A DNA stretch of 5,221 nt from a virus: positions 1 to 5,221 of IMG/VR virus record IMGVR_UViG_3300020041_000048. One strand, given 5' to 3'. Both the position numbers and the translations under genes were made by a program. The notes under the pieces are model-generated. The model searched no databases, was not told the DNA's origin, and was given only the letters and a program-made list of their open reading frames with translations. Of this stretch, positions 718 through 5,221 are shown in pieces (the first letter of the stretch is position 1; the number at the start of each line of letters is the position of its first letter).

Positions 718-785
718 ACAATCACTCCAATCGCTACACTCTTAGAGCCGCAAGCTTTTCCGTACTCGGGGCCAGGGAGGTGTCA

Positions 786-822
786 GTGGGAACCAATATA
801 TCAAGATAGTATTGGTTCCCAC
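786..822 (-). promoter_or_regulatory. Perfect 13-bp stem with 11-nt loop in the VP2-Rep intergenic region. Candidate replication origin (nick site) or transcript-end structure.
   Basis: Plus strand GTGGGAACCAATA (786-798) / loop tatcaagatag (799-809) / TATTGGTTCCCAC (810-822). On the sense (minus) strand the loop reads CTATCTTGATA followed by TATT. No T-run follows it on the sense strand, so it is not a canonical intrinsic terminator. Confidence 0.5.
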
Positions 823-847
823 ACCCTCCACCTGACAGCCTCAGTCG

Positions 848-1842: not shown

Positions 1843-3534
1843 TTAGTGATGGTCGATAAGGCCAGGGATACTATACATAGGCATAGGCCGAGTAGCCTTA
1901 CACTGGATGTAGAGATCGGCAAACATCTGATTAGACGCACTAGAAGTAACAGCAAGTACACGGTCAACATTGGTCTTATCCTCACGAATCCACGCATCAG
2001 ACAACTTGGGGAGCTGGGTATACTCGTCGGCAAGATGCCAAACATCAAGGGAGGCCGGAGCCTTGGAACGCATTTCAGCAGCAACACGGGACGGCTTGTA
2101 ACGGTAATCGGCCCAGGCTTCCTGATAACCAAAAACCTCATCATCCTGGGCGGTGCCCTGGGCGTAAATTTCCTTGTTCAGAATAGGCTGCTCACCGATA
2201 TTGGCGAAAACCGGGAAATAGTAGTCCAGGCGGTCACGACGAGACCAAAAACGCTCAAGGCCCTGCTGATAGGTATGGTCATAGCGGGCGACCATGATGC
2301 CGATCACAAAACCATGCTCAACAAAAGACTTAATGAAATCGCCGTGAACATCGGTAGTAACAGAAAAGGCAGCCGTATCACCGAGAGGAGTACCATCAGC
2401 CTGGGTTGCAGAGTTCTGCACCACCTGATTGATATTAACAGGTATACGGTTGCCGCCAAGATACTCAGGACGCTGGAGGCGAGCATCAGGACTGGTAACA
2501 CCGAAGTGAGATTTAAGGATTTCAATGTAACGAGTACCTCCTCTAGCGTCTTTCTCATAAAGTTTCTGGACCTGAAAGGCCATGCGCAACTGGTTGATAG
2601 TGGCCGCCGTCACAGAACCAGACTGAAGGGCCCACAGGTTGTCAAAGTACAACGTACCATCACGGGAAGAACCGGAGCCAAAAGACATACCGGTAGAGGT
2701 AGAATTAACCTCAGTAGCAGAGGCACCAGTACTGCCAAAGTCGAAAGTCTGCTTAATACTAGAATAATCGGTATTGCTCTCAACACCAGAAGCCCAGGCA
2801 GACATAGGGGACTTAAAGAGAGAATGATCAACACGATCGGCAAGAGAAACAACGGGAAGGTTACCACCCTGGCCGACAGGAATGGTTACATCAGGGCCTT
2901 TCTGCGGAGCAGGCAGAGCGGAAGTGAAGTAGTCATGGAACTTGGCGGCCTTGAAGGGCATACCGCCTTTGACAACATCGGTGATATAGTTGGTACCATT
3001 GGAACCTGCAAGGGTAGCATCATCCACAGGGATGTTGAGGGGGTCAGAGAGGTTCTCATCACGGAACCACTCATTCATGATGAGGGCGTAGGCGCGGAAG
3101 GGGAGGGCATTAACAGAGAGGTTGGCAACACCAGTAGGGATGCCCATGTAGTCGGCAATGGAACCAATAGACCAGCCACCAGAGGGCGCAGTTACCTGGG
3201 GGACAGAGTACTCAGTCTTAGGAATCCAAGCGGACTGTGTATTCTCACCCATCAGCTCACGCCAATGCTGCCAGACAATACGGTTAGGCACGAAGTAAAA
3301 ATAGGTGTCGAGATAAAGATTGTCCATCATGGGAGTGAGCAAGGTTTGGAGGCGGGCCACCATAGAAGTCTTCAACTGGAAAGTGTCTCCAGGTAAAACT
3401 TCATCGACATAGAAGGGGATAACGTCTCCGACGTTAAAACTGAGTTTAACGCTATGATCACGCCGAAAAGTGCTACGAGCAATATCAAGGTTAGTAGGAT
3501 TAAGAGCAAATCTTGTATTTTCATTACGAGACAA
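1843..3534 (-). CDS. VP1: Major capsid protein VP1 (Microviridae F-protein family). It is 563 aa from TTG 3534; the maximal ORF extends to GTG 3606 (587 aa).
   Basis: ORF track 1843..3606. Family hallmarks: FALNPTNLDIARSTFRRDHSVKLSFNVGDVIPFYVDEVLPGDTF, RLQRPEYLGG, FGYQEAWADYRYKPSRV. TTG at 3534-3532 is in frame and has GGAGG (3546-3542) 7 nt upstream. The resulting N-terminus MSRNENTRFALNP resembles typical gokushovirus VP1 N-termini. GTG 3606 has no SD and lies inside a hairpin. Confidence 0.92.
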   Translation of the reverse strand: MSRNENTRFALNPTNLDIARSTFRRDHSVKLSFNVGDVIPFYVDEVLPGDTFQLKTSMVARLQTLLTPMMDNLYLDTYFYFVPNRIVWQHWRELMGENTQSAWIPKTEYSVPQVTAPSGGWSIGSIADYMGIPTGVANLSVNALPFRAYALIMNEWFRDENLSDPLNIPVDDATLAGSNGTNYITDVVKGGMPFKAAKFHDYFTSALPAPQKGPDVTIPVGQGGNLPVVSLADRVDHSLFKSPMSAWASGVESNTDYSSIKQTFDFGSTGASATEVNSTSTGMSFGSGSSRDGTLYFDNLWALQSGSVTAATINQLRMAFQVQKLYEKDARGGTRYIEILKSHFGVTSPDARLQRPEYLGGNRIPVNINQVVQNSATQADGTPLGDTAAFSVTTDVHGDFIKSFVEHGFVIGIMVARYDHTYQQGLERFWSRRDRLDYYFPVFANIGEQPILNKEIYAQGTAQDDEVFGYQEAWADYRYKPSRVAAEMRSKAPASLDVWHLADEYTQLPKLSDAWIREDKTNVDRVLAVTSSASNQMFADLYIQCKATRPMPMYSIPGLIDHH

Positions 3535-3569
3535 GTTAATACCTCCAGTCAGTAACGGTTGTTCAAAAG

Positions 3570-3590
3570 GAGGGGCCCATGGGGCCCCTC
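3570..3590 (-). terminator. GC-rich hairpin (9-bp stem, 3-nt loop) followed by CTTTTG on the sense strand. Possibly a leaky terminator or an mRNA/ssDNA structural element upstream of VP1.
   Basis: Plus strand GAGGGGCCC (3570-3578) AT-G GGGCCCCTC (3582-3590). Sense strand reads GAGGGGCCC-CAT-GGGCCCCTC-CTTTTGAAC. The T-run is only 4 nt, so terminator assignment is weak. Confidence 0.3.
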
Positions 3591-3604
3591 GCTCTCTGTT
3601 GTTC

Positions 3605-3625
3605 ACACGGCCAGGGCGGCCGTGT
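3605..3625 (-). other. GC-rich hairpin (8-bp stem, 5-nt loop) in the VP3-VP1 intergenic region
   Basis: ACACGGCC (3605-3612) / AGGGC / GGCCGTGT (3618-3625). It overlaps the GTG at 3606 that opens the maximal VP1 ORF. Confidence 0.45.
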
Positions 3626-3668
3626 AGGCTACTTTAATCAGATTCAGCCAATGTCAGGAATATGGAAT

Positions 3669-4181: not shown

Positions 4182-4450
4182 CAGACATCCTCCTTCTGCT
4201 GCATAGAGCGGAGAACCTCCGCGCCGTCGGAAATGAGCTCGTGGAGCTGGGCCGGAATGAGAACACCTTTATCGGAATCGAACTCACCAATCCGGAAAAG
4301 CTGGAAATCGGAAGCGTGAGTAAAGAGCACGCCCTTAGATTCCATAATGGCGTTGGCAAAGTTGCGAGCAGCGATATAGTCATTCTGCTCAGTGTTGAGG
4401 CCGAAGAAACCGGAACGCAGATCACGAATAGCATAAACGTTAAGCATCAT
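4181..4450 (-). CDS. Small conserved gokushovirus nonstructural protein (VP5/ORF5-position family, function unknown), 89 aa
   Basis: This is the 133-aa track ORF 4181..4582 trimmed to ATGATG at 4450, which has GGAGG (4464-4460) 9 nt upstream. MMLNVYAIRDLRSGFFGLNTEQNDYIAARNFANAIMESKGVLFTHASDFQLFRIGEFDSDKGVL matches my recollection of a recurring microvirus small-protein pattern (Y.I.D.....F......N...A.R.F........H..DF.L..IGEFD...G). The 44 residues upstream of that ATG are W/S/F-rich and have no SD. Confidence 0.65.
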   Translation of the reverse strand: MMLNVYAIRDLRSGFFGLNTEQNDYIAARNFANAIMESKGVLFTHASDFQLFRIGEFDSDKGVLIPAQLHELISDGAEVLRSMQQKEDV

Positions 4451-4737: not shown

Positions 4738-5221
4738 TTACAACTCCCTTCTCAAATTTTTTATACGGTTATGGAGCACGCGCTCCTGGGTCTCGAGAAT
4801 TTCTTCGTAAGTCATAGTAGACTGGGCCAGCTTGGCCTTCTTGCCTTCCTCGGCAAAGTGCTTGCGCTTGGCCTTAATCTCAGCCATAAGCTCAGGTTGT
4901 TCCAAATCAAAAAGCTTATCGAAATACTTAGGGGGACGAATCTTGCGGCCACCATCAGGAGTGGAGATAGAAATAGTATCATACTCCATGCACTCGGGAT
5001 GGTCTTCGTACCATTGGCGGCCAATACCAGGACGGCGGGACATATCGACATACTCTGGTTGGATGTTAAACGTCTGGTAGACATCAGCATCGGGACCAGA
5101 GGCTTTCTTGAGGACATACCGGGCAACGTAAGCACAGGTTTCCCAGTTAACCTGACCAACCAAAACATAGCCGATAGGCTTCCGGATGAAAGGGGTGTCA
5201 TACTCCCCTTTCTGTTCTACC
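4738..5221 (-). CDS. VP4: Replication initiation protein VP4, C-terminal portion (same gene as 1..717; 5101-5221 duplicates 1-121). Full CDS is complement(join(4738..5100,1..717)), 359 aa.
   Basis: The track ORF 4738..5163 begins at an internal TTG only because the window ends; the frame is open to 5221 and in phase with 1..717 (717+363 = 1080 nt). Sequence: ...VGQVNWETCAYVARYVLKKASGPDADVYQTFNIQPEYVDMSRRPGIGRQWYEDHPECMEYDTISISTPDGGRKIRPPKYFDKLFDLEQPELMAEIKAKRKHF..., a typical VP4 C-terminal domain (SRRPGIG, PPKYFDK). Confidence 0.9.
   Translation of the reverse strand, partial: VEQKGEYDTPFIRKPIGYVLVGQVNWETCAYVARYVLKKASGPDADVYQTFNIQPEYVDMSRRPGIGRQWYEDHPECMEYDTISISTPDGGRKIRPPKYFDKLFDLEQPELMAEIKAKRKHFAEEGKKAKLAQSTMTYEEILETQERVLHNRIKNLRREL
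5101..5221. repeat. Terminal redundancy, copy 2 (identical to 1-121)
   Basis: Exact 121-nt identity with the window start. Confidence 0.95.

Follow-up and report, generated by a model that had tools for sequence, protein, structure and literature searches.

A conserved intergenic hairpin with an adjoining TGACAC box is the probable viral-strand replication origin of gokushoviruses

The window analysed here is the whole 5,221-nt stretch of the IMG/VR record IMGVR_UViG_3300020041_000048, which by gene content is a gokushovirus and carries all of its genes on the minus strand, referred to below as the coding strand. An exact 121-nt repeat is found at both ends (1-121 = 5101-5221), and the window is therefore a circular genome of 5,100 nt. 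Three genomes named "Microviridae sp.", from human and pig faeces, are 87-90% identical to it. In the noncoding gap between the VP2 gene and the gene for the replication protein, Rep (VP4), a perfect hairpin presents the sequence CTTGAT in its loop and is followed by a TGACACC box. Comparison with related genomes supports the earlier proposal that this element is a plus-strand origin, and, by analogy with characterised origins, it is probably the site at which Rep nicks and religates the viral strand of gokushoviruses during rolling-circle replication.

The hairpin had been placed at 786-822, in a 130-nt gap upstream of Rep, by a preliminary description made from the sequence alone, and both its coordinates and its pairing were confirmed. 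Its two arms, 786-798 (GTGGGAACCAATA) and 810-822 (TATTGGTTCCCAC), are 100% complementary with 11 nt between them, and the hairpin reads GTGGGAACCAATA-CTATCTTGATA-TATTGGTTCCCAC on the coding strand. This inverted repeat of 13 nt is the longest perfect one in the genome. A stem of 13 was never reached when the 5,100-nt genome was shuffled 200 times with dinucleotides preserved and scored for the longest perfect stem with a loop of 3-20 nt (the maximum was 12, seen once). The hairpin is also the most stable 50-nt segment of the coding strand, at -13.5 kcal/mol with DNA parameters, the next three segments being at -12.8, -12.1 and -12.0 kcal/mol. Its earlier billing as the strongest secondary structure thus holds for both lowest energy and longest perfect repeat, but the margin in energy is slight, and the significance of the hairpin comes from its conservation and not from its energy. 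Folding of the entire 130-nt gap gave -22.8 kcal/mol (z = -3.8). The pairing of GGAGG with CCTCC that is seen in the minimum-energy fold was dropped, as it is not conserved among close relatives. Both halves of an outer pairing suggested previously are present (TGTCA at 781-785 and TGACA at 833-837), but the pairing itself is not conserved. The upstream half belongs to an inverted copy of the TGACA box (833-839, CTGTCAG on the minus strand), which in the window and some relatives is found 10 nt upstream of the hairpin; a sister sub-clade has GAAAAT in place of this upstream TGTCAG. A TAGCGA hexamer in the gap, which resembles the CS-6 of single-strand origins (sso), was taken as chance, its 30-nt stretch being deleted in MG945361 and MG945820. 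A search of Rfam returned no credible family, the best being mir-3156 with 21.8 bits against a gathering score of 76.

The sequence TTGAT occurs at nine sites on the coding strand, and a hairpin together with the box is found at only one of these, the element described here, where TTGAT sits 90 nt from the Rep start. Further copies of the longer motif do exist, as had been pointed out, with CTTGATAT at 3482-3489 minus, within VP1, and CTTGATAA at 1755-1762. The VP1 copy fails as a competitor for the origin: it has neither a hairpin nor a TGACAC box, and in 10 of 22 close relatives it reads CTTGAC through a synonymous GAT/GAC change, so that it drifts synonymously and is not under constraint at the DNA level. 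The CTTGATA copies in VP1 and VP2 were both judged to be chance. TGACAC itself has just two occurrences in the genome. The other one lies within an 11-bp imperfect hairpin, GAAAGGGGAGTATGACACCCCTTTC (88-112 = 5188-5212, minus), inside the Rep coding sequence, which has no CTTGAT and is probably coincidental.

Conservation of the hairpin with its flanking sequence, from ACGACTGAGGCTG to CACTGACACC, exceeds that of the adjoining coding DNA among three GenBank relatives, and the loop is invariant. The sole stem change in close relatives is compensatory (AATA/TATT to AGTA/TACT), and the same two stem versions were found in about 35 IMG/VR contigs of the window's clade. A scan of IMG/VR with the motif CTATCTTGATA-N(6-20)-TGACAC reached about 20 contigs of 4.0-4.8 kb beyond this close clade, in which the loop is the same, the stems of 7-13 bp are unrelated and TGACAC is found 12-13 nt past the loop. 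These distant contigs encode homologues of Rep and VP1 (phmmer E = 1e-21 to 1e-133) in differing gene orders, and with few exceptions the element in them is intergenic. A scan with the 15-mer TACTATCTTGATATA was set aside, as it gave mostly chance matches in large contigs and was informative only where a stem flanks the match.

Selection by motif was avoided in a further sample of 78 loci, which were fetched by Rep similarity alone using an alignment of 16 diverse Reps (A3). Three of these loci are close relatives of the window, and the other 75 are at 31-55% Rep identity. With a simple scan (a loop containing TTGA[TC], closed by a perfect stem of 6 bp or more, with GACA[CG] nearby), the element was found in 54 of the 78, with stems of 7-17 bp and a TTGAT-to-GACAC distance of 15 nt (43 genomes) or 16 nt (11 genomes). 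Where stems are long, the GTG of GTGACAC takes part in the pairing (CAC...GTG). The spacing between TTGAT and the box seems to be measured along the strand and not from the base of the stem. A covariance model, R1, built from 60 non-redundant elements (alignment A4), matched 67 of the 78 loci at E <= 1e-3; the matches number 69, one per genome except in two contigs with a duplicated end. On the window, R1 gave a single match that covers the full model (775-834 minus, 57.2 bits, E = 1.3e-12). Two copies of the element can be seen in some IMG/VR contigs (L207, L218, L272, L277 and L296), which appear to be assemblies exceeding one genome unit, or chimeric; the copies in L218 are on both strands, and those in L272 (655-714 and 5175-5234) differ in stem sequence and both pair.

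Columns that never vary in A4 spell C-T-T-G-A-T and T-G-A-C-A, the latter with a C after it in at least 90% of sequences; the pattern used for selection imposed TTGAT and GACA but left free both the C preceding TTGAT and the T preceding GACA. Loop and box are kept while stems are unrelated between lineages. The conserved unit is bipartite, made up of the loop CTTGAT, the motif noted previously, and the TGACAC box at fixed spacing. Of 48 genomes in which its position could be determined, 35 have the element no more than 400 nt upstream from where Rep starts, and 7 have it 400-1,500 nt upstream.

Covariation of the stem was seen in two alignments. In A4, made by plain MAFFT with no structure fitted, 13 of 14 pairs change on both sides, and 166 double-changed cells were counted against 83.5 +/- 7.9 in shuffles, with none of 500 shuffles reaching 166; the covariation score was 0.369, compared with 0.115-0.239 when the 3' partner was slid. 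In A5, the model-fitted alignment of the Rep-selected sample, which leans toward the model structure, all 14 pairs covary, 83.7% of cells are paired (30-43% when slid) and 185 double-changed cells are present against 64.8 +/- 7.3 in shuffles. Conservation of the loop motif and covariation of the stem, the comparison by which the earlier proposal could be checked, were thus both found well beyond close relatives. Weak matches to R1 were also returned for Chp2 and phiMH2K, and these are hairpins in the expected place with loops CTACTTG(A/T)T. The Chp2 hairpin reads CTAGCGTATAACAG-tctacttgat-CTGTTATACGCTAG-gtgatagc (about 2903-2948, plus strand) and is found between the VP3 and ORF8/ORF4 (Rep) genes (R1 match at 2891-2953, E = 0.058), and that of phiMH2K reads GTTCGGCTAC-ggaccctacttgttgtaa-GTAGCCGAAC-tcacag (3285-3345, plus strand) and is found between Vp5 and Vp4 (E = 0.028).

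In a Pfam search the Rep of the window matched PF23343 (REP_ORF2-G2P, E = 1.8e-14), and no match to PF01446 or to a helicase domain was found. Across the 16 Reps of A3 the HUH motif (H159, H161) and the tyrosines Y230 and Y234 are invariant, and the catalytic YVARYVLKK is encoded at about 16-30, in the N-terminal part. A BLASTP comparison of Rep with phiX174 protein A gave E = 5e-4, with PHYHAI corresponding to LHFHAV and YVARYVLKKA to YVAKYVNKKS. The conserved active site of Rep is consistent with a conserved cleavage core.

The element is best placed, as a new member, in the known class of HUH-Rep rolling-circle origins. In the same virus family, the viral-strand origin of phiX174 (30 bp, CAACTTG^ATATTAATAACACTATAGACCAC) is served by a homologous two-tyrosine HUH Rep, with YVAKYVNKK where the window has YVARYVLKK. 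In the phiX174 record the rep_origin is annotated at 4306 (A4306), inside gene A, with the sequence CAACTTG^ATATTAATAAC; cleavage is at G4305/A4306 by Tyr343/Tyr347, and synonymous changes across the origin are detrimental (2026 preprint). The core CTTGATAT is identical and on the viral strand, so the sharing of this core (798-805 minus) that had been noted earlier is borne out at 8 of 8 nt. These 8 nt are all that the two have in common, and the full 30-bp CAACTTGATATTAATAACACTATAGACCAC is absent from the element. The phiX174 origin is also without a flanking inverted repeat and lies in its Rep gene, whereas the window element is intergenic (718-847), and the downstream part of the phiX174 origin consists of an AT-rich spacer and ACACTATAGACCAC, from which the TGACACC box of the window, 14 nt past TTGAT, differs in sequence and spacing.

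A better match is provided by the double-strand origin (dso) of pC194/pUB110-type plasmids (Rep_1, PF01446), in which TATCTTGATA is identical to the window loop over 10 of 10 nt; likeness to phiX174 thus holds for the 8-nt core, and the plasmid origin is the closer in sequence. CTTGATA is the conserved nicking site of the dso in Rep_1 plasmids (PMC10378824), and the pC194 origin sequence is TTCTTTCTTATCTTGATAATAAGGG / TTCTTATCTTGATAATAAG (PMC7072734). As in the window, the site is intergenic and upstream of rep, and the pC194 sequence can be read as bracketing the motif with a short inverted repeat, CTTAT...ATAAG. The nick in pC194 is reportedly made exactly at G^A. Unlike the window element, the plasmid stem is about 5 bp with no TGACAC box, and these are plasmids of Firmicutes and not phages. 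The Rep of pC194/pUB110-type plasmids uses Tyr and Glu where that of the window has two Tyr (PMC5703833), and it falls in PF01446, whereas the window Rep matches PF23343. Double-strand origins generally combine a nick locus with an adjoining bind locus (PMC5714925). In the gokushovirus element the linear distance to the box is fixed and independent of stem length, in agreement with such a layout, and this suggests that nick core and box are recognised as one unit.

An HUH nick motif in the loop of a covarying intergenic hairpin is also found at the origins of CRESS-DNA viruses, whose single-stranded circles encode Rep (circo-, gemini- and nanoviruses), where the nick is toward the 3' side of the loop and a Rep-binding sequence adjoins the stem, both of which are predicted for the window. 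Unlike the window, CRESS origins have TAGTATTAC or TAATATTAC as their loop motif, and the nonanucleotide (T/N)A(G/T)TATTAC is not in the window loop; their Rep has one catalytic Tyr and a fused superfamily 3 (SF3) helicase, compared with the two Tyr of the window Rep, and no homology is implied. In architecture, the element resembles pC194 and CRESS-type stem-loop origins more closely than it does the intragenic origin of phiX174. The nearest report is that of Olo Ndela et al. 2023 (PMC9865509), the part of which dealing with covarying Cap-Rep hairpins describes intergenic hairpins upstream of Rep, with identical loop and compensatory stem changes, in the roodoodoo- and reekeekeeviruses. These are two other, very small microvirus clades, and no link to CTTGAT or TGACAC is made in that part of the report. 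A literature search, with subscription journals mostly outside its scope, found no description of a gokushovirus origin hairpin or nick, and the papers it found on hairpin origins in Microviridae lack this element; an older description may exist, for example in the sequence papers of Chp1, Chp2 or SpV4.

If the element acts as the viral-strand origin, Rep, as an HUH enzyme with the catalytic tyrosines Y230 and Y234, would recognise a bipartite site on the double-stranded replicative form. One half would be the TGACACC box by the inverted repeat, and the other CTATCTTGATA, single-stranded in the loop and exposed when the 13-bp repeat extrudes or melts. One tyrosine would cut the coding strand between G802 and A801, a position predicted for this phage by analogy, with Rep staying linked to the 5' end at A801 and the 3'-OH of G802 priming a host polymerase. 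After one round, the second tyrosine would cut the regenerated site on the displaced strand, and the old strand would be ligated into a circle and then packaged. Cleavage, its exact position, extrusion of a cruciform and binding of Rep to TGACACC are all predicted steps.

About 94% of genomes carry the element on their coding strand. In seven genomes of the first two samples it is opposite to both Rep and VP1, and five of these (L180, L279, L292, L293 and L297) were confirmed to be circular and complete, the other two (L252 and L253) being linear contigs. A replicate set, defined by the pattern CTTGATGTAA-N(9-11)-TGACAC, comprised 120 loci, all but one from contigs of microvirus size, and added four inverted genomes (L320, L337, L382 and L400) for a total of 11. 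The inversion of the element relative to the genes argues against any role at the mRNA level. Single-stranded DNA phages are rich in NNT codons, owing to C-to-T deamination of the single-stranded genome (PMC3278643). The A-T skew was measured at four-fold degenerate sites of VP1 and Rep on the coding strand and averaged -0.45 in 67 same-strand genomes, with -0.82 in the window (T 49%, A 5%). All seven inverted genomes gave +0.52 to +0.75, with T at just 7-21%. By BLASTP of VP1 and Rep these seven span at least 4-5 lineages, and their nearest same-strand relatives have skews of -0.6 to -0.8. Among the 102 new loci of the replicate set with a VP1 match, 98 are same-strand (mean -0.39, maximum +0.58), and the four inverted genomes hold the four top skews of the 102 (+0.62 to +0.72). 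T-richness tracks the element and not the genes, as would follow from displacement and packaging of the strand that bears the element. It is therefore proposed, as a suggestion that stands evenly poised, that the element sets the displaced and packaged strand and that about 6% of gokushovirus genomes (11, from at least 5 lineages) package the noncoding strand and are negative-sense Microviridae; this is independently supported because the synonymous A/T skew flips in exactly these genomes. To our knowledge, negative-sense Microviridae have not been described before.

The hairpin might instead be a complementary-strand (minus-strand) origin, read on the incoming viral single-stranded DNA by host primase, a PriA-type primosome or RNA polymerase. 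Parallels for such an origin are the n' site of phiX174 and the sso elements of plasmids. The complementary-strand origin of phiX174 (the PriA n' site, in the F-G intergenic region) is likewise a viral-strand intergenic hairpin needed for replication (2026 preprint), and the conserved Cap-Rep hairpins of Olo Ndela et al. were read in this way, tentatively and uncertified, in the part of their paper that concerns them (PMC9865509). Unlike the element in the window, however, the n' site is read by host PriA through its structure, has no CTTGAT, overlaps a terminator and is host-specific. What is conserved in the gokushovirus element is the loop CTTGAT, the nick core of homologous Rep enzymes, and this motif and the TGACAC box at fixed distance are kept across gut, freshwater and marine phages and those of Chlamydia and Bdellovibrio. 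Conservation across such diverse sources is more in keeping with a reader encoded by the phages than with the primosomes of diverse hosts. Known single-strand initiation (ssi) and sso elements are longer, imperfect and host-specific, and the hairpins between VP3 and VP1 (about 3560-3668) offer an alternative candidate for the priming role. A minus-strand origin at the element is accordingly considered unlikely. It is also quite unlikely that the element is a regulatory or packaging signal bound by Rep or capsid, such as an operator for Rep autorepression, with the true nick elsewhere. An operator would fit with the position of the element, mostly just upstream of rep, with the resemblance of the TGACA box to a sigma-70 -35 hexamer (TTGACA) and with the finding that RepU of pUB110 silences the adjoining rep promoter at its dso (PMC5703833). 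Against this, TTGAT, hairpin and box are combined nowhere else in the genome, a scan of 600-950 for promoters and terminators revealed nothing of either kind on the coding strand, including no -10 partner, and box and hairpin remain together in genomes where the element is inverted relative to rep or lies over 1.5 kb away from it. TGACA was rejected as the -35 hexamer of rep on the same grounds, the hosts also being too diverse. The coupling of packaging to the origin itself in phiX174 counts against a separate packaging signal. An autoregulatory role could exist alongside origin function.

That the hairpin ends the VP1-VP2 transcript as a terminator, or stabilises the mRNA there, a role for which the preliminary description had left room, is very improbable. 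The hairpin is stable and stands right after the VP2 stop codon, but it has no T-run, no terminator-like site was found in 600-950, and its 11-nt loop is conserved in sequence, whereas terminators conserve structure and not loop sequence; in the 11 inverted genomes the element lies opposite all genes, on the non-transcribed strand, by which this role is largely refuted. Scarcely conceivable is a XerC/XerD dif-like site for lysogenic integration, as in the gokushovirus prophages of enterobacteria. Some gokushoviruses integrate at dif, and an intergenic element resembling an imperfect palindrome would suit such a site, but the geometry is 13-11-13 and not 11-6-11, no match to the E. coli dif consensus was found with up to 3 mismatches, and it is the centre that is conserved and the arms that vary freely among relatives, which is the reverse of what dif sites show.

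Several points weigh against the element being the viral-strand origin. The nick is placed in gokushoviruses by analogy, and architecture is not conserved across the family, the phiX174 origin being inside gene A and not in a hairpin. About 11 of the 78 Rep-selected genomes have no R1 match, most of these being linear and possibly incomplete contigs, some R1-matched variants have a CTTGTT loop, the element is more than 1.5 kb from Rep in 6 of the 48 genomes, and a search of SpV4 with R1 gave no convincing element. The covariation controls ignore phylogenetic relatedness, a caution that is tempered by the visible lack of relation between the stems of different lineages. Skew serves only imperfectly as a proxy for the packaged strand, as about 10% of same-strand genomes also have positive values (e.g. 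L273, +0.70), and host codon usage affects it as well. The hairpin is on the strand presumed to be packaged, as a priming origin would be, and the evidence from polarity and skew fits plus- and minus-strand origins alike, both of which act on the packaged strand.

Gokushoviruses rank with the most abundant single-stranded DNA phages of gut and environmental viromes, and their replication origin has so far been undefined. If the element is their viral-strand origin, it would offer an exact nick site open to direct test (G802/A801), together with a 60-nt minimal origin on which biochemical work and gokushovirus replicons or vectors could be based. A family-wide marker (R1 or CTTGAT-N14-TGACAC) would give a natural zero coordinate and strand for thousands of metagenomic microviruses. 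An evolutionary link would also be drawn between Microviridae and pC194-type plasmids, which would share a nick core presented in different ways (in a hairpin or linear, intergenic or intragenic), and the packaged strand would become predictable, with some microviruses suggested to be negative-sense. The parts of the element and the genes around it are listed in Table 1.

Table 1. Positions of the origin-like element, its parts and the annotated genes in the window
Feature	Position	Strand	Basis or remark
Whole conserved origin-like element (5' flank, hairpin, TGACACC box)	775..834	minus	60-nt covariance-model match
5' stem arm, coding strand GTGGGAACCAATA	810..822	minus	Perfect inverted repeat; covarying pairs
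11-nt loop, coding strand CTATCTTGATA	799..809	minus	Identical in about 35 close and about 20 distant relatives
CTTGAT, predicted nick-site core	800..805	minus	Invariant in 60 non-redundant elements; phiX174/pC194 analogy
3' stem arm, coding strand TATTGGTTCCCAC	786..798	minus	Perfect inverted repeat; covarying pairs
TGACACC box, candidate Rep-binding half	779..785	minus	Directly 3' of hairpin; conserved, fixed spacing
VP2-Rep intergenic region holding the element	718..847 (130 nt)	minus	Assumes Rep start TTG 717
Rep (VP4), N-terminal 239 codons	1..717	minus	Circular open reading frame reconstructed; crosses circle junction
Rep (VP4), C-terminal part	4738..5100	minus	Rep continues 5100->4738 past junction
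VP2	1831->848	minus	Stop codon 848-850
VP1	3606->1843	minus	Pfam Phage_F, E = 1e-169
VP3 scaffold gene	4181->3669	minus	
ORF5-like gene	4582->4181	minus	

The start of Rep is most likely the TTG at 717, with GGAG before the start codon; it is favoured because an N-terminal M-x-C-x-x-P is thereby kept, in which C3 and P6 are invariant in the 16 Reps. In GenBank relatives Rep is annotated from ATG 654, by which 21 conserved residues are lost. The codon matching TTG 717 reads ATA in MG945361 and MG945820, and a non-canonical, probably weak, Rep start codon may be a trait of the window's clade.

The intergenic region between VP3 and VP1 (about 3560-3668, minus) keeps 97% identity in relatives whose overall identity is 87-90%. 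It contains two hairpins, ACACGGCC-gccct-GGCCGTGT at 3605-3625 and GAGGGGCCC-cat-GGGCCCCTC at 3570-3590, the latter followed by TTTT, which are candidates for a terminator and/or a complementary-strand origin. The conservation of this noncoding stretch implies a VP1 start downstream of GTG 3606; the Pfam match of VP1 starts at residue 42, and no ATG is found close by. An open reading frame of 168 aa with an ATG start is also present on the plus strand, antisense to Rep (208-714); it has no match in Pfam and is probably not a gene but a side effect of the reading frame of Rep.

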